From contig CAYRYY010000004.1 of NCBI GenBank assembly GCA_964428715.1, positions 1 through 26,593 on the forward strand: a stretch of 26,593 nt of DNA, written 5' to 3'. Positions within the stretch are counted from its first letter, which is position 1. Every line of letters starts with the position of its first letter. Source of the stretch: an uncultured Gammaproteobacteria bacterium. GTDB taxonomy: Bacteria; Patescibacteriota; Microgenomatia; Levybacterales; GWA1-39-11. The notes under the pieces were generated by a model. It was not told the origin of the DNA and made no database searches. It saw nothing but the letters and a program-made list of their open reading frames with translations. Shown piece after piece: positions 7,577 through 24,731 of the stretch. The position numbers and the translations under genes are program-made.

Positions 7577-7648
7577 TCGGGGTGAAAGGAATTGGACCTT
7601 CTACCTCTGCGTCCCGAACGCAGCGTTCTACCGATGAACTACACCCCG
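7577..7648 (-). tRNA. tRNA-Pro(CGG), no encoded CCA
   Basis: Cloverleaf: acceptor CGGGGTG/CACCCCG, anticodon arm CTGCG-TTCGGGA-CGCAG, T arm GAAGG-TCCAATT-CCTTT. Confidence 0.92.
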
Positions 7649-7678
7649 GGCGTAAGTAATGTTTTGCAGTGGTAGATG

Positions 7679-7751
7679 CGTCCCCGATTGGAGTCGAACC
7701 AACAATCTTTCCCTTAGGACGGGACTGCTCAATCCATTGAGCTACGGGGAC
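7679..7751 (-). tRNA. tRNA-Arg(CCT), no encoded CCA
   Basis: Acceptor GTCCCCG/CGGGGAC, D arm GCTC/GAGC, anticodon loop GTCCTAA, T loop TTCGACT. Confidence 0.93.
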
Positions 7752-7841: not shown

Positions 7842-8570
7842 ATGGAAGAGCACATGACTAAAAAAGAACGAAAAGAACAAAAAAAGCTTGAGCGCATGGA
7901 TCAAATGGAAGGATCTCAAAAATCATTTAAGACAAAAGGAATTATTATTGGCGTTGTGGCGCTTATTTTCTTAGGGTTTTTTATCTACGCAATAAATGCT
8001 GCAAAAAGTAAACCTTCAGAGCCGGTTGAGTTGTCTGCTAGCGGATGGGTAAAAGGAAATCCAGAGGCTACAGTTACCTTTACGGAATTTGCTGATTTTC
8101 AGTGTCCATATTGTAAGCAATTCTCACCTATTGTATCTCAGCTAGAAAAAGAATATGGAGACAGAATTAAGATTGTATTTAAACATTTCCCACTTAAGCA
8201 AGCTCATCCTAATGCGTTTCCAGCAGCAGTTGCCGCAGAAGCTGCAGGCAGGCAAAACAAGTTTTGGGAATATCACGATCTCTTATTTGAAAAACAAGAA
8301 GAGTGGTCAGCTACGCCAAATCCACAATCAAAATTTGTTGAATATGCAAAGGGTTTAAAGCTAGATGCAGCGCAATTTGAAAAGGATTTGGATGATGACA
8401 AACTCAAAACTGCAGTAAATGCTCAGGTTGATGAAGGAATAAAAGTAGGCGTGTCGGGTACCCCCACACTGTTTATAAATGGAGCGCCAATTGATATCCC
8501 TGGAAATTATGAAGTATTAAAGCTGCAGATTGAAAGCGTGCTGCCTGATGCATCACCTTCTGCAAAATAA
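7842..8570 (+). CDS. dsbA: Membrane-anchored DsbA-family thiol:disulfide oxidoreductase
   Basis: EFADFQCPYC, FKHFPL, AAEAAGRQNKFWEYHDLLF, GVSGTPTLFING, N-terminal TM helix. Confidence 0.92.
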   Translation: MEEHMTKKERKEQKKLERMDQMEGSQKSFKTKGIIIGVVALIFLGFFIYAINAAKSKPSEPVELSASGWVKGNPEATVTFTEFADFQCPYCKQFSPIVSQLEKEYGDRIKIVFKHFPLKQAHPNAFPAAVAAEAAGRQNKFWEYHDLLFEKQEEWSATPNPQSKFVEYAKGLKLDAAQFEKDLDDDKLKTAVNAQVDEGIKVGVSGTPTLFINGAPIDIPGNYEVLKLQIESVLPDASPSAK

Positions 8571-8571
8571 C

Positions 8572-9117
8572 ATGGATAATCCATTTGCTCCTTTATTATC
8601 ATTTTTAGCCCTCGGAACTCTCCTTTTTATAATTGGTATAGCGGTAGGCACACTTCTTTTTATTGTTTCATTTTTAACTCCAAAAAAATCATTAGTTGGT
8701 AGACTTTCAAATTTAATAGGTGACAATGCGATGGGAATAGGACTTATTATAGCGACAATGGCAACTGTATCAAGCTTATTTTTATCAGAAGTTGCAGGAT
8801 TTCCTCCCTGCAAACTATGCTGGTATCAGCGTATTTTTATGTATCCGCAGGTTATCGTTTTGGGAGTAGGACTACTATACAATGACTTGAAAGCTCGTTT
8901 AATAGCGCTTATTTTAAGTATTATAGGAGTACTTATTGCGGTTTATCACATACTCGTTCAGTTTTTTCCAGCGTCATTTAAGTGTTCAGACGAAGTGGCT
9001 AATTGCGCGCTGAAATCATTTACCTATTATGGGTTTATAACGATTCCTGTTATGAGTTTAGTGGCCTTTTTAGCAATCATTGTAGTGCTCCTTTTTAGCT
9101 TCAAGAAGACCCGTTAG
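8572..9117 (+). CDS. dsbB: DsbB/BdbC-type disulfide bond formation protein
   Basis: PCKLCWYQRIFMYP, second Cys pair C-SDEVAN-C, GFITIPVMSL, multi-TM. Start at ATG 8572 directly after the dsbA stop. Confidence 0.92.
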   Translation: MDNPFAPLLSFLALGTLLFIIGIAVGTLLFIVSFLTPKKSLVGRLSNLIGDNAMGIGLIIATMATVSSLFLSEVAGFPPCKLCWYQRIFMYPQVIVLGVGLLYNDLKARLIALILSIIGVLIAVYHILVQFFPASFKCSDEVANCALKSFTYYGFITIPVMSLVAFLAIIVVLLFSFKKTR

Positions 9118-9153
9118 TTTCCGTAAAGACTCAAAATCCTTTATAATACACAT

Positions 9154-9870
9154 ATGGGGAAAAAGCAGATCATAAAGTACCTTGTGCTGCGCACATTGGG
9201 AAATTTTTTAATTCTTTTCATGGTGTTTGGATTTGTAGCAACTTTTGGTCCAGCAATTTACTACGAGGTGAAATTTAGAGTGTCTCAATTTAGGGGGGTA
9301 TCATATGCGTTAACCTCAAAAGACCCGGAAGAGATTAAAAAGATCAATGAAGAAAAAAAGAATGATCCAGTTGCGGCAAGTTTATTTGGAGATGTGTTAG
9401 CTGAAGGAAAGACGCATGAAATTATACCTACTGACACCGAATTTTCTGTTGTAATTCCCAAAATTGGAGCCAATGAAAAAATTACAGCCAATGTAGATCC
9501 ATCTAATGAAGGTGAATATCTAGACGCTTTGAAGCATAGTGTGGCACATGCAAAAGGTTCAGCATTGCCAGGACTTGGAGGAACAACATATTTATTTGCT
9601 CATTCAGCTGACAATTTTTGGGATGTAGGCAGGTACAATGCTGTGTTTTATTTGCTAAAAGATTTAAATATAGATGATGAGATTTCTGTCTTTTTTGATA
9701 ATAAAAGATATAACTATACTGTGTATGACAAGAAAATTGTAGACCCTTCAGAGGTGGATTATTTGGCAGCTAATATAGGGCAGGGAGAACGCATAATACT
9801 GCAAACATGTTGGCCACCAGGAACAGCATGGAAACGTATGCTCATTTTTGCAAAACCTGTAAACAATTAG
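9154..9870 (+). CDS. Sortase (class D/E-like)
   Basis: N-terminal TM helix, VVIPKIG, GVAHAKG-like VAHAKGS, YLFAHS (catalytic His), LQTCWPPG (catalytic Cys), KR (Arg). Confidence 0.92.
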   Translation: MGKKQIIKYLVLRTLGNFLILFMVFGFVATFGPAIYYEVKFRVSQFRGVSYALTSKDPEEIKKINEEKKNDPVAASLFGDVLAEGKTHEIIPTDTEFSVVIPKIGANEKITANVDPSNEGEYLDALKHSVAHAKGSALPGLGGTTYLFAHSADNFWDVGRYNAVFYLLKDLNIDDEISVFFDNKRYNYTVYDKKIVDPSEVDYLAANIGQGERIILQTCWPPGTAWKRMLIFAKPVNN

Positions 9871-9923
9871 TTTTGCGAAAAGAACGGCAGTGTCCTTTTT
9901 GCAAAACCAGTTAGCAATTAATT
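9845..9923 (+). repeat. Imperfect direct repeat of the sortase 3' end (24/28 nt identical, 51 nt offset)
   Basis: tttttgcaaaacctgtaaacaattagtt (9845-9872) versus tttttgcaaaaccagttagcaattaatt (9896-9923). Confidence 0.8.
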
Positions 9924-10122
9924 GAGGGTGGGGTTTCACGCGGTGTGCGTGAACACCTAAAACAGCTGAGTTCAATTGTATGAATTTTCGTGCGTAATGA
10001 TTTAGTTTTTTACACTTCCGTTCTACTTGTAAGCACTTTGATGATCTTGACCACCGCATTTTCACATCATATAAATTACTTTAATGAACTGCCCAGTTAC
10101 TAAAAACACATTTATATTTTTG

Positions 10123-10151
10123 AACCAAACACCTAGTGTTTGGTTTTTTTT
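10123..10151 (+). terminator. Intrinsic terminator upstream of the tasA-like gene
   Basis: Stem aaccaaacac/gtgtttggtt followed by a T run. Confidence 0.7.
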
Positions 10152-10219
10152 GATTTGAAAATGTAATCAGAATTAATTCTGTTTTATTGACAGAAAAGAA
10201 TGGAGGTGAATTTTAAATT

Positions 10220-10771
10220 ATGTTAACAACAAGAATTGGAATTTCAATGTTTTCTATTTTAGCAGCAGTTGGATTGCTCAGCGGAGCAACCTTCGCATTC
10301 TTTACAGACACAGCAACTTCTCAAGACAATACGTTTGCAACAGGTACAGCAGATTTACAAATTGCAGTGGACAATGCAGGAGTTCCTGGAGCGTTTGGAG
10401 CAGAGATTACAGCACCAGCAATTGATGAAGAAAATATAGTCCCTGGTTTTTCTAAGACTTATGATTTTTGGCTTAGAAATAATAGCTCTACAGGAATTGA
10501 TATGAGTATAGCTGCAGCACTTGCAGATATCATAACAACTGGTAATGCTGGCATTCAAGATCAGCTTACAGTTCAAATTGACTGCGGAATAATAGCTGGA
10601 CCAGCTGCAGTAAGTGGATTTACCGGAGGCCCATATCCAGTACGAGCAACTTTGAGTGCTGGGGTTAATGTGCCTTGTGAGATGACAGTATCACTCCCAT
10701 CGAGCGTAGATAGTAGTTATCAAGCATCGAGTGTGAGGTTTGATGGGGTATTTACAGGAACACAACTGTAG
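10220..10771 (+). CDS. TasA/camelysin (CalY)-like protein with SipW-type signal peptide; probable major fibre subunit
   Basis: GATFA|FFTDTATSQDNTFATGTADLQI, NIVPG...Y.F.LRN, C-terminal YQASSVRFDGVFTGTQ. Strong SD GGAGGTG at 10202-10208. Confidence 0.85.
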   Translation: MLTTRIGISMFSILAAVGLLSGATFAFFTDTATSQDNTFATGTADLQIAVDNAGVPGAFGAEITAPAIDEENIVPGFSKTYDFWLRNNSSTGIDMSIAAALADIITTGNAGIQDQLTVQIDCGIIAGPAAVSGFTGGPYPVRATLSAGVNVPCEMTVSLPSSVDSSYQASSVRFDGVFTGTQL

Positions 10772-10782
10772 ATTTGGTAGGT

Positions 10783-10842
10783 TTTTTGTGGCGGGCAATT
10801 GCGTCAGCCCGCCACAGAAACAGTAAGAAGTAGATGACGCAA
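10783..10842 (+). other. GC-rich hairpin whose loop is complementary to a downstream segment (possible pseudoknot)
   Basis: Stem tgtggcgggc(10787-96)/gcccgccaca(10807-16). Loop ttgcgtca(10799-806) is the exact reverse complement of tgacgcaa(10835-42). Confidence 0.65.
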
Positions 10843-10861
10843 AATTTTTATAACTGCCCTT

Positions 10862-11416
10862 ATGAAAAAAGCAAGAAAAATAACGCTTAAAGTATTACAT
10901 ATTAAATTTACTATTTTAGTATTCTTATTAGTTCCGCTAGCTATTGCAACACTTATAACTTCTAAAACAAATATACTTGGCAACATTCAATCATATGTAG
11001 TTCTCACCGGGAGTATGACGCCCACAATTCCTGTAGGAAGCGTAGTGTATGTAAAGAAAGCACAAGACTACAAAACAGGAGACGTTATAACATTTAATTC
11101 TCAAAATGGTCAGCGCGTAACCCACAGGATTGCAAGTGTGGAAGATTCAGGTTATGTCACCAGAGGAGACGCCAATAACACAACTGATAAAGATTTGGTT
11201 TCCAAAACAGATATAGTTGGAAAAAATGTTTTTACACTTCCATATGTAGGACGCGCTATTTTATTTTCTAAAACTCCATTGGGATTTGGGCTTATCATAG
11301 TACTTCCTATTTTAGTATTTATTGGATTTGAAATATGGAATATTAAAAAAGAACTGGAAAAACAGATCGAGAAAAAATTAAAAAAACAATTACTGCAGAA
11401 TACCCAAAACGTATGA
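10862..11416 (+). CDS. sipW: Signal peptidase I, SipW/ER-type (Ser-His)
   Basis: VVLTGSMTPTIPVGSVV, GDVITF, VTHRI, TRGDANNTTD, PYVG, C-terminal TM helix. Confidence 0.92.
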   Translation: MKKARKITLKVLHIKFTILVFLLVPLAIATLITSKTNILGNIQSYVVLTGSMTPTIPVGSVVYVKKAQDYKTGDVITFNSQNGQRVTHRIASVEDSGYVTRGDANNTTDKDLVSKTDIVGKNVFTLPYVGRAILFSKTPLGFGLIIVLPILVFIGFEIWNIKKELEKQIEKKLKKQLLQNTQNV

Positions 11417-11925
11417 GATATGCTTTATTTTTCTTTTCAGTTATAGCATTTTTAGGATTTTTTCTAACACGAGTGACATTCGCTGTTTTTTCAGATTCTG
11501 CAGTTTCTCAAAATAACACTTTTACAGCCGCAGCTGTTTTTGCATCTCCTACGCCAAGTTTGTCACCAACTCCCACACCTCAAGAAGTTCCATTATTTGT
11601 AAGCAACCCCTTTACCTGTGCAGATGGCGCCTCTAACACAAGTGTCTCAAAAGGAAATGTGAGTTTTGTAAAAACATCATCACTTGAGATACAAGTGGAA
11701 TTGCAAAATGCACTTCCAAATACTCAGTATGCGTTATGGGTAAATCAAAATCCAGGCGGTTGTCCACAGCCAAATGCCACACAAAATGCGTTTATTGAAA
11801 CTGATGCAAGTGGAAATGGACAAAACACCTTATCAGGACATGCGCTCGTGGGTGGTGCGACAAGATTTTGGGTAAGCATGGTAGGCGGTTCTGATGTATT
11901 AAGAAGCAAAGCGGTAGAATTATAA
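11413..11925 (+). CDS. SipW-type signal-peptide protein with TasA-like N-terminal strand, Pro/Thr linker and a small beta domain
   Basis: VTFA|VFSDSAVSQNNTFTAA matches the TasA-type mature N-terminus, then SPTPSLSPTPTP, then a domain with 2 Cys. ATGA overlap with sipW. Confidence 0.75.
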   Translation: MRYALFFFSVIAFLGFFLTRVTFAVFSDSAVSQNNTFTAAAVFASPTPSLSPTPTPQEVPLFVSNPFTCADGASNTSVSKGNVSFVKTSSLEIQVELQNALPNTQYALWVNQNPGGCPQPNATQNAFIETDASGNGQNTLSGHALVGGATRFWVSMVGGSDVLRSKAVEL

Positions 11926-11927
11926 AA

Positions 11928-12872
11928 ATGAAAAAAAGAATATTAGTCATTTTGTCACTTATTATTTTGCTCTCTGGTGTAAGTGTATATGCTAAAGACA
12001 ATTTAAAACTTTTTGAGAATACTGCATATGCAGTAGGGGAGTTGACCGTTAATTGGGGAGCTGGTATTTCTGAAGGAGAGCCAATATTTGAAGTATCAGA
12101 TATGATTCCAGGGCAGATAGAAACGCATACCGTGGAAGTACTAAATGGATCAAGTAATACTCGTCCAGTAGGAGTTAAGGGGATTGAGACAGCAAATAAT
12201 GGAGATTTGTCATCTGCATTCTCCATAATTATTTCTCAAGGTTCTAGCGTTTTGTATGGAGCGGGAAGTCTAACTGGTGTAAAAACTCTTGCTGATTTCT
12301 TTGAGGAAAGCAGCAATCCTTCAGGTATATTTTTATCAAACATAAATCCAGGAGACAGTGTGTTATATACATTTACAATTATTTTTAATGCAGATTCAGG
12401 AAACGAATTTCAAAATACAGAAACTATTTTTGATTTAAAAATTGGAATGTCAGTTCCGATTCCTACAGAATGTGCGCATATAAAATTTGGAAAAAACACT
12501 GTGCCAATTCTGGGAACTGCAGGAAGTGACAAAATAAACGGAACACCTGGAAACGACTGTATAATGAATTTTGAAGGAGTAGATACAGTCACTGGAGGGG
12601 CCGGAAACGACTGCATAGTAGGAATTTCAGGAGTCAAGAAGTTTAATGGGGGGGCCGGAAATGATGGAATAATAGGTGGAAGCTCAAATGACAGTTTGGA
12701 TGGGGGGGCCGGAAATGACATTATTTCAGGAGGTGCTGGAAATGACACAATAAAAGGAGGTGCTGGAAATGATGCGTTGGATGGCGGTTTAGGAAACGAT
12801 GTGACAGATGGAAATGCTGGAAAAGACTCATGTTCTGCAGAAACTACAAAAGCATGCGAGAGTGCAATATAG
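11928..12872 (+). CDS. Secreted TasA-like core domain fused to RTX (hemolysin-type Ca-binding) repeats
   Basis: IFEVSDMIPGQIETHTVEVLN and NINPGDSVLYTFTIIF...GNEFQNTETIFDL resemble the TasA/camelysin core; GGAGND nonapeptides in the C-terminal third. Confidence 0.78.
   Translation: MKKRILVILSLIILLSGVSVYAKDNLKLFENTAYAVGELTVNWGAGISEGEPIFEVSDMIPGQIETHTVEVLNGSSNTRPVGVKGIETANNGDLSSAFSIIISQGSSVLYGAGSLTGVKTLADFFEESSNPSGIFLSNINPGDSVLYTFTIIFNADSGNEFQNTETIFDLKIGMSVPIPTECAHIKFGKNTVPILGTAGSDKINGTPGNDCIMNFEGVDTVTGGAGNDCIVGISGVKKFNGGAGNDGIIGGSSNDSLDGGAGNDIISGGAGNDTIKGGAGNDALDGGLGNDVTDGNAGKDSCSAETTKACESAI
12513..12836 (+). repeat. 12 consecutive 9-codon RTX-type repeats
   Basis: GTAGSDKIN/GTPGNDCIM/NFEGVDTVT/GGAGNDCIV/GISGVKKFN/GGAGNDGII/GGSSNDSLD/GGAGNDIIS/GGAGNDTIK/GGAGNDALD/GGLGNDVTD/GNAGKDSCS. 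Confidence 0.9.
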
Positions 12873-13114
12873 ATAATTTGATACACAATGATTACCTTGA
12901 CAAAAAACACGTAAAAGGAGTTAAATTATTACACTTCTCTTGGCAGGGAACTGTAGGATTGATAGGATAACTACAATCACACAAGAATAAGAGTAACTTC
13001 AAAGAACTTTTTTGCTGACCGCCCCCGGAAGCATTACATCCAGCACATTTCCTGGATATTTTCATACACAGAATTTATATATTGTGATATCTTTTTTGAA
13101 AGGAGGTGAATTTA

Positions 13115-13708
13115 ATGAATATTAAAAATAAAATTGCGGCTGCATCTGCTTCTGCTGTAATTTTGAGTGGAGTGTTAGTGAATGGTGCATTTGCATCAAC
13201 AGATATCACTATCTCTGGTAACTTAAAAAAATCAGAGAATAAAGTAACTGTCAAAAACTCAAAAGTTACAAAGGTTACACAGAGCAACTCACAAGTGGTT
13301 AATACAGTTGTAAATTCTTCAGCATCTACTGGAGGAAATAAGGCAAATGACAACATGGGAGATGTGATTGTAAGTACAGGTAAGGCAACTTCACATGTGA
13401 CGGTTGCCGTAGGCGGAAATGTAAACACAGCAACATTCCCATGCGGATGTGAAGAAACAGACACAACAGTAAAGGTAAAAAATAACGGTAAGAAAAGCAA
13501 AAATACCGTAAATACTGATGATCTGGTAAAGAATATTGCAGCTCAAGTGAATGCTGCATTAGTTGGAACTGGTGTAGGATCTGATGCTGCAACAGGAGAC
13601 AACAAAGCAAACGCCAATGGCGGAAAAGCAACAGTAGACGTATCTACTGGAGTTTCTAACTCAACTGTAGCAGTTGTGGTAGAAGGATCAGTAAACGTGC
13701 TTGAGTAG
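13115..13708 (+). CDS. Secreted two-repeat Asn/Gly/Val/Thr-rich protein (predicted beta-solenoid or amyloid-like)
   Basis: Signal ending in GAFA; two ~80-aa repeats (A.TG.NKAN.N.G...VSTG.....V.V.V.G.VN) joined by a PCGCEE hinge. Strong SD AGGAGGTG at 13101-13108 places the start at ATG 13115. Confidence 0.8.
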   Translation: MNIKNKIAAASASAVILSGVLVNGAFASTDITISGNLKKSENKVTVKNSKVTKVTQSNSQVVNTVVNSSASTGGNKANDNMGDVIVSTGKATSHVTVAVGGNVNTATFPCGCEETDTTVKVKNNGKKSKNTVNTDDLVKNIAAQVNAALVGTGVGSDAATGDNKANANGGKATVDVSTGVSNSTVAVVVEGSVNVLE

Positions 13709-13727
13709 TAAGCATCGTTTATTGTAG

Positions 13728-13778
13728 TGAAAACGGACCTCTAGGGGCATTGACCCTGCGGAGGCCGTTTTCATTTTA
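13728..13778 (+). terminator. Long hairpin terminator closing the fibre locus
   Basis: tgaaaacgg/ccgttttca with inner cctc/gagg and taggg/ccctg stems, followed by tttta. Confidence 0.7.
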
Positions 13779-13803: not shown

Positions 13804-15993
13804 ATGGGACAATTTGTGCATTTACTGGTTAAAAACCCCAAGGATGATGAGACGCCAATTCAAGCGGCGACGCAGATATTTTCAAGCGTATTACCATATC
13901 CATATATTCCCTTATGGAAGCATGCATATTCAAAACCAACACCGTTTGCGTTTGAAATATTTCTAATAAATCAGACAGTTTCGTTTTATGTAGCAGCACC
14001 TGCCAACAAAGAGACCGTGGCTTCTAGTGTTATTTCATCGTCTTTTCCTAAATCACGAGTTATTAAAACAACAGACCCTATGCTCGAAGTGCTAAAAGCA
14101 AAACATATAGCTTATGGTCAGATGGTTTTAAATTCATATTCTTATTTGCCTATTAAAACTTTTGCTGATTTTGAAGATGTTGATCCGTTGTCAGCAATGC
14201 TTGGATTTTTAGGAAAACAAACAGAAAATGTACAAATGGCTGTGCAAATTTTGGTAACTCCTGCAACGTTTGCTTGGCAAAGCAATGCGGTAAAACAGGC
14301 AGGGCATATGATATTGGATACTCCAGGTTCAGCAACTGACCCAGCTGACAAGGCGCGCTATGCGCAAAATCCGCAAAAAATGTTAATGATGCAAAAAGCA
14401 GCTTTTCAGGGTGGTAAAGCAGTTGTGAGGCTTATTGTAGGTGCGGATTCAATACCTGAAGCAAAACATGAGCTAGCCAACCTTTCAGGAACATTTGGAA
14501 CTTTTTCACTGGGTGAGGGAAATCAGTTTGTTTTAAAAAAACCCAGAATCCGCAAAAAACTTCTTTTGGAACGGATTAAAAGCAGACAAACTGGATTGTT
14601 TGAAAAAAGACAGCAAGTATTAAACGCGGCAGAATTGGCCACTTTGTGGCATCCACCGGGGATCTTACTTGCGGGACTCAAAAATATTTCATGGGGAAAA
14701 ACACTTTTGGGTGAAGCTCCTGAAAATCTTCCTGTTATAACTAACATGGAAGATGATGAAAAGCAAAAGATTAATTTTTTTGCAAAAACAGAGTTTAAAA
14801 ATAAAGAAACAATTTTTGGAATTAAGGATGCAGATAGACGTAAACACATATACGCAATTGGAAAAACTGGGGCTGGAAAGTCCACACTTATTGCAAACAT
14901 GGCAATTGATGACATAAGAAAGGGACGCGGCATAGGAATTATAGACCCACATGGTGATTTGTCAGAAATTATCTTAGACTACATTCCTAAAAGACGCTTG
15001 AATGATGTGGTGTATTTAGAGCCGTTTGATCAGGAAAGGCCTTTCTCGTTAAATGTTTTGGAGATTCACAATAAACAGCATAAAGATTTAATTTCTTCAG
15101 GAATTGTTTCAATATTTCACAAAATTTACGGGGATAGTTGGGGACCAAGACTGGAGTACATTTTGCGTAATGTCATCTTAACACTACTTGATGTTGAGCA
15201 GGGGACACTTCTTGATGCGCTGCGTATTTTATCAGACGAGCCATACAGGAAAAAAATTGTGGCTCAAATTCAGGATCCAGTACTTAAAAACTTTTGGGAG
15301 CAGGAATTTGACAAAATGTCAGATAAATTAAGAACAGAAGCTGTTATGCCGATTCAAAACAAAATTGGTCAATTTGTTTCATCAAAAATGATTAGAAATA
15401 TTATTGGAAATCCAACAAGTTCAATTAATCTGCAGGAAATTATGGATGATGGAAAGATTTTAATCCTTAATTTGTCGCAAGGAAAATTGGGAGAAGACAA
15501 TGCAGCATTGTTGGGCGCTATGATAATTACACAAATTCAGTTGGCTGCTATGAATAGAGCATTTGTGAAAGAAGAAGACAGGCGCGACTTTTTCCTATAT
15601 GTAGATGAGTTTCAGAATTTTGCAACTAGTTCATTTATTAAGATTTTGTCAGAAGCTAGAAAATACAGACTTTCATTAACACTAGCTAATCAATATTCTG
15701 ATCAGCTGGAGGAAGAAATACAGCGGGCAATTTTTGGAAATGCAGGAACTATTATCTCATTTGTAGTAGGAGCGCATGACGCCTATACCTTGACCAAGGA
15801 ATTTGCTGAAATATATTCAGAAAACGATTTAGTGTCACTTGGGAAATTCGAAACTGTCGTAAAGTTATCTATTGATGGAATGACGTCTGGTCCGTTTCCA
15901 GCAACTACACTTCCGTTGCCAAATCTCAAAAATGACAATAGAGCTGATATTATTCGAATGTCAAAAGAACGTTATGGGAGAAAAGCAATGTAG
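13804..15993 (+). CDS. VirD4/TraD(TrwB)/VirB4-like FtsK-HerA-superfamily ATPase
   Basis: Walker A GKTGAGKS, IIDPHGDL, WGPRLEYILRN, Walker B FFLYVDEFQNF, SEARKY..L.LANQY. Start at ATG 13804, 6 nt after TATAAT. Confidence 0.88.
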   Translation: MGQFVHLLVKNPKDDETPIQAATQIFSSVLPYPYIPLWKHAYSKPTPFAFEIFLINQTVSFYVAAPANKETVASSVISSSFPKSRVIKTTDPMLEVLKAKHIAYGQMVLNSYSYLPIKTFADFEDVDPLSAMLGFLGKQTENVQMAVQILVTPATFAWQSNAVKQAGHMILDTPGSATDPADKARYAQNPQKMLMMQKAAFQGGKAVVRLIVGADSIPEAKHELANLSGTFGTFSLGEGNQFVLKKPRIRKKLLLERIKSRQTGLFEKRQQVLNAAELATLWHPPGILLAGLKNISWGKTLLGEAPENLPVITNMEDDEKQKINFFAKTEFKNKETIFGIKDADRRKHIYAIGKTGAGKSTLIANMAIDDIRKGRGIGIIDPHGDLSEIILDYIPKRRLNDVVYLEPFDQERPFSLNVLEIHNKQHKDLISSGIVSIFHKIYGDSWGPRLEYILRNVILTLLDVEQGTLLDALRILSDEPYRKKIVAQIQDPVLKNFWEQEFDKMSDKLRTEAVMPIQNKIGQFVSSKMIRNIIGNPTSSINLQEIMDDGKILILNLSQGKLGEDNAALLGAMIITQIQLAAMNRAFVKEEDRRDFFLYVDEFQNFATSSFIKILSEARKYRLSLTLANQYSDQLEEEIQRAIFGNAGTIISFVVGAHDAYTLTKEFAEIYSENDLVSLGKFETVVKLSIDGMTSGPFPATTLPLPNLKNDNRADIIRMSKERYGRKAM

Positions 15994-24543: not shown

Positions 24544-24572
24544 TTGATTTGAGCAATAGCCTATGGTATACT
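24544..24572 (+). promoter_or_regulatory. rplJL promoter
   Basis: TTGATT-17-TATACT with extended -10 TG. Confidence 0.75.
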
Positions 24573-24586
24573 ACAAAATAGAAAAA

Positions 24587-24632
24587 TTCCAAAGACAGTA
24601 AGCAAGGGATTACCTATAAGACTTACCGAGGA
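24587..24632 (+). promoter_or_regulatory. L10 leader (ribosomal protein autoregulatory RNA)
   Basis: CCAAAGACAGUAAG...CUUACCGAGG matches the AAGAC/CGAGG core of L10 leaders, directly upstream of rplJ. Confidence 0.8.
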
Positions 24633-24663
24633 CAGCATGTTAGTTATAACTAATCAGTAATGT

Positions 24664-24693
24664 TGGCGCCTTTGGAACGGGCGCTATTTTTTT
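24664..24693 (+). terminator. Attenuator terminator in the rplJ leader
   Basis: tggcgcc/ggcgcta stem followed by T7. Confidence 0.7.
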
Positions 24694-24731
24694 GCCCTTA
24701 CAATACTATTTAATAAATATTTAACAAACTT

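Follow-up and report, generated by a model that had tools for sequence, protein, structure and literature searches.

Does a cluster of five genes in the genome of a patescibacterium encode a surface fiber of the TasA type, and if so, how might such a fiber be built? A large part of the diversity of bacteria lies in the Patescibacteria, which are believed to live on the surface of other cells. Apart from type IV pili and Pam pili, the latter solved recently, no attachment structures of these organisms are known to us, and we know of no cultured representative of the Microgenomatia, to which the present host belongs. We have analyzed a window of 26,593 nucleotides, contig 4 of a host genome of 1.24 Mb (147 contigs, 93 % complete), and the cluster occupies positions 10220-13708. 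Our conclusion is that it probably encodes a SipW-dependent surface fiber of the TasA superfamily that assembles by donor-strand exchange.

The initial annotation of this DNA had proposed a plus-strand run of five genes directing the formation of such a filament. All five open reading frames (ORFs) were found, as follows (aa, amino acids; ER, endoplasmic reticulum; AF2, AlphaFold2).

10220..10771, + strand: g1, TasA-like major subunit of 183 aa (PF12389, TIGR04088, profile comparison with the PDB, AF2 model)
10862..11416, + strand: g2 (sipW), SipW-class (archaeal/ER-type) signal peptidase I (TIGR02228 match, SEC11 alignment)
11413..11925, + strand: g3, TapA-like protein (weak TIGR04088 match, profile comparison with the g1 family)
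11928..12872, + strand: g4, fusion of a TasA-type core with RTX repeats (hhalign to the g1 core, PF00353)
13115..13708, + strand: g5, secreted two-repeat protein (alignment A5)

The major subunit and its signal peptidase

The g1 protein comprises a SipW-type signal peptide with predicted cleavage after A26 (ATFA|FF), a donor strand at around residues 27-45, and a β-sandwich core extending from 46 to 183. It matched PF12389 (Peptidase_M73/TasA) with 34.7 bits against a cut-off of 22.5, and the TIGR04088 SipW-type signal peptide with 30.4 bits (cut-off 19). The score with the TasA equivalog NF046066 was 17 bits against a cut-off of 450, and g1 is therefore not a TasA orthologue. An exhaustive profile search with g1 returned 6215 cluster representatives at E ≤ 1e-3. 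The family profile used for comparison with the PDB was an alignment of 130 sequences (A2) with a mean column identity of 18 %. This matched TasA (5of1, E = 1.3e-5; 8aur, E = 1.8e-5), profile positions 39-190 aligning with chain residues 4-203, that is the whole mature domain, and it also matched AbpX with E = 1.7e-4.

The structural comparison leads to the same family. The AF2 model of g1 has a pLDDT of 90, and a Foldseek search with it placed the TasA fiber 8aur_A first (E = 6.5e-7) and the Pyrobaculum bundling pilus (ABP; 7ueg) second. Other top matches were Fim/CFA pilins and a Sulfolobus thread, interleaved with unrelated β-sandwich domains such as GH123 N-domains. In the VIA alignment 8aur_A was the sole match with Z ≥ 8, giving Z = 10.1 and a root-mean-square deviation of 2.5 Å over 129 residues, and chaperone-usher pilins were found in the middle range, with Z of 6-8. 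The sequence identity of g1 with TasA is 23 % over the 129 residues aligned by VIA, and 16 % in the Foldseek alignment. The TasA fold that had been suggested for the mature protein is thus borne out by profile, model and structural alignment.

The donor strand of TasA consists of residues 28-38, and F29, I32 and F39 hold the strand in the next subunits (PMC9674648). F28 and F39 of g1 correspond to TasA F29 and F39. Within A2, F28 is present in 86 % of sequences and F39 in 82 %, and A26 is invariant. The donor segment is the best-conserved part of the protein, residues 27-45 carrying 2.49 bits per column compared with 1.53 for the core. By fold, homology, signal-peptide type and donor-strand conservation g1 is a subunit of the TasA superfamily, and the homology and the conserved donor strand suggest that it would polymerize into a fiber by donor-strand exchange.

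The product of g2 matched the archaeal-type signal peptidase I family TIGR02228 with 101.7 bits (cut-off 51.85). Ser51, His88 and Asp103 align with human SEC11A/C via the GSMxP, HR and GDxN motifs, giving a Ser-His-Asp rather than a Ser-Lys arrangement. The score with the Bacillus SipW equivalog NF046067 was 103.7 bits, below its cut-off of 190.

The accessory proteins g3 and g4 and the conservation of the cluster

The start of g3 overlaps the stop codon of sipW (ATGA). In the protein, a SipW-type signal peptide and a donor strand are followed by a Pro/Thr/Ser linker and then by a SOD/CHRD-like β-sandwich, which has TM scores of 0.54-0.60 to Sod_Cu/CHRD clusters. The match to TIGR04088 is weak (E = 0.019). 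However, comparison of the g3 and g1 family profiles by hhalign gave 95.8 %, confirming the claim of a second SipW-type substrate. The alignment covers residues 3-41 only, and from this comparison g3 appears to have the signal peptide and donor strand in common with g1, but no TasA core. No family match was found in Pfam or NCBIfam, and neither TapA orthology nor the central Ig-like domain was detected. By analogy g3 would be TapA-like in role, rather than a member of the TapA family. The C-terminal domain is exchanged in relatives, either for a lamin-tail domain (Pfam LTD, E = 1e-18) or for a repeat of the g5 type (hidden Markov model of A5, E = 1e-6 to 1e-9).

In some genomes SipW and a g3-like module are found in a single reading frame. 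This was the case in 10 of 20 loci sampled across the phylum and in 3 of 15 loci of relatives (L035-L037). An assembly error was considered for the in-frame ORF of L036, and was rejected; as about 13 loci, spread over different families of Patescibacteria (L081, L084, L086, L089-L094, L097 and L035-L037), have the same fusion, it is taken to be genuine.

g4 begins with a generic N-terminal signal or anchor, followed by a TasA-type core (approximately residues 37-176), an RTX β-roll (approximately 196-300) and a C-terminal pair of cysteines. Residues 53-176 align with 65-182 of g1 (hhalign 98.6 %, E = 8e-16), and the RTX region matched PF00353 with 64.1 bits (cut-off 23). Comparison of the g4 profile with the PDB matched the RTX blocks of CyaA, lipases and serralysins. 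Thus the fusion of TasA and RTX parts that had been read from the sequence is upheld. The first 60 residues of g4 gave no match with the signal and donor-strand profile of g1. A divergent donor strand in g4 was looked for in this comparison and not found, the comparison being one that does not cover a non-homologous strand. At the level of sequence, then, g4 seems to share the core alone with g1, without a canonical donor strand. Its N-terminus consists instead of a hydrophobic segment and then a spacer that varies, with a conserved TAYA|VG motif immediately ahead of the first core strand. Judged by toxin-family score, pore-forming or acylation domains and a C-terminal signal for type I secretion, g4 does not have the character of an RTX toxin: its score with NF033943 was 66.6 bits against 1000, arising from the repeats only, and it has an N-terminal hydrophobic signal instead (the genome was not searched for type I secretion system genes).

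Is the arrangement retained in other genomes? A homologue of g1 was found in 18 of 60 relatives, although in just 2 of the 8 that belong to its own genus, and 72 of 400 genomes sampled evenly from the phylum contain a g1 relative (E ≤ 1e-5). In the 15 loci of relatives, SipW follows g1 in every case. A g3-like gene is present in 12 of these, with another TasA-like paralogue in that slot in 2 more, and a clear g4-like gene in 8. Over all the loci read, relatives and phylum-wide sample together, most have a gene resembling g4 downstream. SipW lies beside TasA-type substrates in the window itself and in 18 of the 20 phylum-wide loci, so that it is adjacent in 33 of 35 loci read overall, and the order g1-SipW-g3-g4 recurs both in related genomes and across the phylum. 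The clustering on which the initial annotation depended is therefore conserved among relatives.

Within the family to which the window belongs, the cassette has dsbA-dsbB-sortase on one side and mreC-mreD-PBP2 on the other. The region that follows the sortase gene is variable, and in relatives unrelated genes are found there. The best match to g1 comes from another family (219 bits, compared with 102 bits within the genus), in a genome that has a complete g1-g5 cassette (G048:C17; L025/L056). This, together with the patchy distribution, suggests that the cassette is mobile or often lost.

A proposed assembly and its rivals

In B. subtilis, the first strand comes from TapA, and every TasA reaches with its own strand into the subunit that follows (PMC9674648, PMC10151520). 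With family, fold, motifs and synteny as the basis, we infer by analogy a scheme of cleavage, polymerization, polarity, stoichiometry and function for the present proteins. SipW would cleave g1 and g3 after the invariant Ala (at ATFA|FF in g1), as with TapA and TasA of B. subtilis. g3 would be made in a ratio of about 1:1 with SipW through translational coupling, and by giving its strand to the first g1 it would nucleate the fiber, perhaps also holding it at the cell. g1 would be produced in excess, with its strong Shine-Dalgarno (SD) site and 3′ hairpin, and would be added head-to-tail with the N-terminal strand of each subunit inserted into the next. g4 could accept a strand with none to donate, and would thus cap the far end, where the Ca-stabilized RTX domain would be the adhesive tip. 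The upstream DsbA and DsbB would oxidize the paired cysteines, and g5 would be a separately translated, abundant surface protein.

Several observations weigh against this reading. The PF12389 match is limited to residues 3-94 of g1. The AYA|VG motif of g4 lies some 13 residues past the hydrophobic region, unusually far for cleavage, and an uncleaved g4 would be a membrane anchor instead of a tip. Mature g3 has no obvious anchor, lacking both a transmembrane segment and LPXTG, and its C-terminal domain varies among relatives (SOD-like, LTD or g5-type repeat) as that of a tip adhesin might. In the closest relative read (L040:4769-10802) there is a sortase, a divergent SipW, g5 (71 % identity) and a VirD4-like gene, and no g1, g3 or g4. 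Either SipW was retained when the fiber genes were lost, or it acts on a different substrate there. From this locus, and from the presence of g1 in just 2 of 8 genomes of the genus, it follows that the fiber is dispensable and that SipW may have other substrates. Finally, none of the RNA runs searched convincingly contains the locus. One contig of 253 nt from a wastewater library labeled 'RNA-Seq' is only about 90 % identical, and is no proof of transcription.

The main rival explanation is the same fiber with the opposite polarity. g4 would keep its N-terminal helix as the base in the membrane, its groove taking the strand of the first g1, and g3 would plug the far end and present its variable C-terminal domain as the tip adhesin. 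The differing g3 domains of close relatives are what would be expected of a host-specific tip, among the accessory proteins g4 shows the strongest conservation (E = 1e-68 to 2e-87 in relatives), and the distance from its hydrophobic segment noted above is that to the sole conserved AxA site. However, that site, lying directly before the first core strand, resembles a cleavage site, and the in-frame fusions with SipW place g3 at the membrane. Moreover, the donor-only TapA of B. subtilis acts at initiation near the cell and not at the tip (PMC9674648, PMC10151520). We consider the opposite polarity unlikely.

Less likely again, and in our estimation improbable, is the absence of any polymer, with g1, g3 and g4 being SipW-processed monomeric proteins of the surface or matrix (adhesins or Ca-binding wall proteins) that share the TasA fold. 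TasA is stable as a monomer (PMC9674648), and the mid-range structural matches of g1 include the non-fiber GH123 N-domains. Against this, the N-terminal segment is the best-conserved part of a family with such low mean identity and keeps both of the donor-strand Phe residues of TasA, and without strand exchange it would be difficult to account for donor-only and core-only paralogues kept next to each other throughout the phylum. The name of the Pfam family, for which g1 scores above the cut-off, would suggest a secreted metalloprotease of the camelysin type (Peptidase_M73). The protease assignment of that family is historical, and is not known to be established for TasA. The g1 sequence contains neither HExxH nor another recognizable metal-binding motif, and its fold matches are the TasA fiber subunit and pilins, not proteases. 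We have accordingly rejected this explanation, which we find scarcely credible.

How does the proposed fiber of g1, g3 and g4 compare with known systems? In the B. subtilis operon tapA-sipW-tasA (8AUR, 5OF1) and in sipW-tasA-calY of B. cereus an ER/archaeal-type peptidase is found beside its substrates, as here. B. subtilis TasA has the same fold as g1 and a homologous donor strand with both Phe residues. In both systems a second substrate, TapA or g3, resembles the major subunit in its signal peptide and donor strand alone. Here the gene for the peptidase overlaps that of the TapA-like protein, and tapA and sipW overlap in Bacillus too (PMC10151520). There are also differences. The gene order is tasA-sipW-tapA-like here and tapA-sipW-tasA in B. 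subtilis, TasA is longer than g1 by about 50 residues (mature g1 157 aa versus 234), and the C-terminal domain of g3 is SOD/CHRD-like where that of TapA is Ig-like. Additional to the B. subtilis set are the core-only subunit fused to RTX repeats and the associated g5 repeat protein, and the host is a 1.2-Mb patescibacterium, unlike Bacillus.

Besides TasA itself, members of the TasA superfamily now include AbpA, AbpX, Tafi, threads and cannulae (10.64898/2026.01.04.697558). The archaeal AbpA bundling pili, AbpX and Tafi have donor-strand-exchange subunits of the superfamily of g1. An adjacent TIGR02228 peptidase has been reported for AbpX, as found here. Calcium is involved in AbpX and would be in the present system also; in AbpX it is located at the donor-strand interface, whereas here a separate RTX β-roll, carried by an accessory subunit, would bind it. 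The peptidase of AbpX is one with ten transmembrane helices or a fusion to DUF5305, while in the Patescibacteria group its fusion to the TapA-like protein is frequent. For Tafi loci, both a tip adhesin and an anchor have been reported (10.64898/2026.01.04.697558).

The Pam pili of Candidatus Mycosynbacter amalyticus (PMC13278184) are the only solved pilus specific to the Candidate Phyla Radiation (CPR), and these too use donor-strand exchange without a trans-envelope machine. They have been reported in Saccharimonadia and Microgenomatia, with a proposed order of strand-less tip subunit, shaft and strand-donating anchor (PMC13278184). Pam pilins have two domains and a mass of 39-55 kDa, the donated strand being a linker, and they are served by membrane-anchored PapD-like chaperones. 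The published description mentions no relationship of Pam to SipW or TasA (PMC13278184), and Pam as described there is built differently from g1-g5. Chaperone-usher pili (Fim/Pap, CFA/I) likewise have Ig-like subunits with N-terminal donor strands and a tip adhesin that has none. However, the present system has no chaperone, usher or outer membrane, and no detectable sequence relationship with them.

No study of a TasA-type fiber in Patescibacteria was found in our literature searches, in agreement with the initial annotation, which knew of no characterized example in this lineage. Nevertheless, Patescibacteria were already among the phyla listed with PF12389 by Wang et al. (2022; PMC9245690), and Pam has been solved in the CPR (PMC13278184). 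The general type of system is already known, and the cluster is most likely an unstudied version of it rather than a new kind, so that the gain from this window alone is modest. What is particular to it is the acceptor-only subunit bearing RTX repeats, the coupling of a TapA-like protein to sipW, and the link with a family of g5/sortase surface proteins. If present in about one fifth of the sampled genomes of the phylum, a TasA-type fiber would be the third common surface appendage of these bacteria. The machinery would be minimal, with one peptidase, no chaperone, usher or ATPase, and small genes. Donor-only and acceptor-only paralogues side by side would moreover offer a clean natural test of how a TasA-type fiber starts and ends.

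The g5 protein, expression signals and surroundings

The start of g5 is placed at the ATG at 13115, because the listed GTG at 13106 falls within the SD sequence. The protein has two repeats of about 85 aa, rich in N, G, T and V, with a conserved CxC hinge between them (alignment A5). It has no match in Pfam, NCBIfam or profile comparison with the PDB. The AF2 model, calculated from an alignment of 25 sequences, is poor (pLDDT 54), and the structural neighbors listed for g5 in the ESM Atlas all have TM scores below 0.25. An amyloid or β-solenoid structure was considered for g5, and is neither supported nor excluded by the model, the ESM Atlas or the profile comparison.

The family of g5 is typical of Microgenomatia. 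The nearest g5-like clusters in the ESM Atlas are labeled Saccharimonadota. The family is found in three settings. In L025, L027, L030, L048, L049, L056 and L068 it directly follows g4, and in L052 a g1-like ORF lies between g4 and g5. In other loci, which have no TasA genes, it is a small gene next to a sortase. There are also larger paralogues, one of which ends in LPITG/LPATG with a hydrophobic segment and a basic tail. The family is as often tied to sortase/LPXTG loci that lack TasA genes as to the fiber genes, and in other genomes proteins like g3 and g4 carry fused repeats of the g5 type. The gene, repeats and SD site that had been noted for g5 are all present, but it is not a dedicated fiber gene. 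Its tie to the fiber genes is real but loose, and it is a neighbor rather than a dedicated subunit. g5 probably makes up the surface layer or stalk with which the fiber works.

The host genome also encodes proteins of this kind on contig 3, namely repeat proteins of 421 and 743 aa, an LPATG protein of 369 aa and a second sortase. This is an example of a recurrent Microgenomatia locus (G000:C3, at L079:5938-11310 on the minus strand; L042, L046, L055, L058 and L060-L062). The genes of the locus encode a repeat protein of about 420 aa, another of about 740 aa with a C-terminal transmembrane segment, a small sortase, and a third repeat protein, of about 370 aa, with LPATG/LPITG, a transmembrane segment and a basic tail at its C-terminus, often with a g5-like gene of 200 aa. 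The proteins share one N/G/T-rich repeat for which there is no Pfam model. The locus may encode an undescribed sortase-anchored surface layer or pilus of Microgenomatia, to which the g5 repeat family points.

A broader scheme may be put forward tentatively, although taken as a whole we find it rather doubtful. Patescibacteria would have made the TasA system into a polar attachment organelle, having a donor-only starter coupled or fused to the peptidase, a shaft, and a cap able only to accept a strand, whose adhesive modules could be swapped (RTX in this window, LTD or g5-type repeats in other genomes). Such a fiber would be structurally integrated with the lineage-specific, sortase-anchored layer of the g5 family, and be a main determinant of attachment to hosts or surfaces in Microgenomatia.

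The signals that surround the five genes, and the genes upstream, are as follows.

7842..9870, + strand: dsbA, dsbB and sortase (upstream context; kept upstream in the family with or without TasA genes)
10122..10154, + strand: intrinsic terminator, 11-bp stem then T8 (-13.4 kcal/mol, z -3.45)
10202..10209, + strand: strong SD site of g1, GGAGGTGA, 10 nt 5′ of the ATG
10783..10820, + strand: hairpin between g1 and sipW, 14-bp, GC-rich, without a U-tract (-30.3 kcal/mol, z -3.77)
13100..13109, + strand: strong SD site of g5, AAGGAGGTGA, 5 nt 5′ of the ATG
13726..13777, + strand: intrinsic terminator ending the cluster (-33.1 kcal/mol, z -5.39), followed by the U-tract UUUUCAUUUU

The cluster is thus bracketed by intrinsic terminators on both sides. 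The first ends the upstream dsbA-dsbB-sortase unit, and a new transcript therefore begins at g1; the second is the closing terminator that had been recognized after g5. The description of the genes as a tight run holds for g2, g3 and g4, where g2 and g3 overlap by 4 nt (ATGA) and g3 and g4 are separated by 2 nt. It does not hold for the junction of g1 and g2 (90 nt, with the strong hairpin), nor for that of g4 and g5 (242 nt). The g1-sipW hairpin is possibly a partial terminator or a stabilizer of the mRNA that would give an excess of the subunit. SD sites of the GGAGG type precede 4 of the 30 genes of the window, namely g1, g5, PBP2 and L7/L12, so that strong sites are indeed rare and are found on the first and last genes of the cluster, as had been noted. 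Most of the other genes lack an SD site and have instead, 5-10 nt 5′ of the start codon, a box resembling TATAAT. The position of this box immediately 5′ of the ATG in most genes suggests that leaderless mRNAs are widespread. Minus-strand ORFs over g4 and g5 (e.g., 12410-12910) are mirror images of the repeat-coding sequence.

Action of the upstream sortase on the fiber proteins was considered and rejected. None of g1-g5 ends in LPXTG followed by a hydrophobic segment and a basic tail, and so there is no sorting signal on any of them. In addition, the dsbA-dsbB-sortase block is kept with or without TasA genes, and the space between sortase and g1 is variable. The stretch of about 250 nt between the sortase stop codon and the terminator (9871-10121) has no credible ORF and no Rfam match, and only 38 nt of it is conserved in L040.

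The host is a member of the Microgenomatia within the Patescibacteria. Records with the same synteny are assigned to Candidatus Levybacteria or Levyibacteriota, and more distant ones to Daviesbacteria and Shapirobacteria, all of them Microgenomatia. In near-identical form the locus recurs in freshwater and wastewater metagenomes that are independent of one another and come from several studies. Many records of metagenome-assembled genomes (L040-L068) carry the title 'uncultured Gammaproteobacteria bacterium' though they are Patescibacteria by synteny and gene content, and the title looks like a placeholder or a mislabel.

Downstream of the cluster, positions 13804-15993 encode a VirD4/TrwB-like ATPase of 729 aa (PF10412, PF12696), the N-terminal half of which (about 340 aa) has no family assignment. 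The gene looks leaderless, its ATG at 13804 being preceded at 6 nt by TATAAT, and it lies between g5 and mreC in the window and in L040 and not in other members of the family. Elsewhere in the window there are two tRNAs on the minus strand (7577-7751), and an Rfam L10 leader at 24571-24699 (46.8 bits, gathering threshold 44) upstream of rplJ-rplL.

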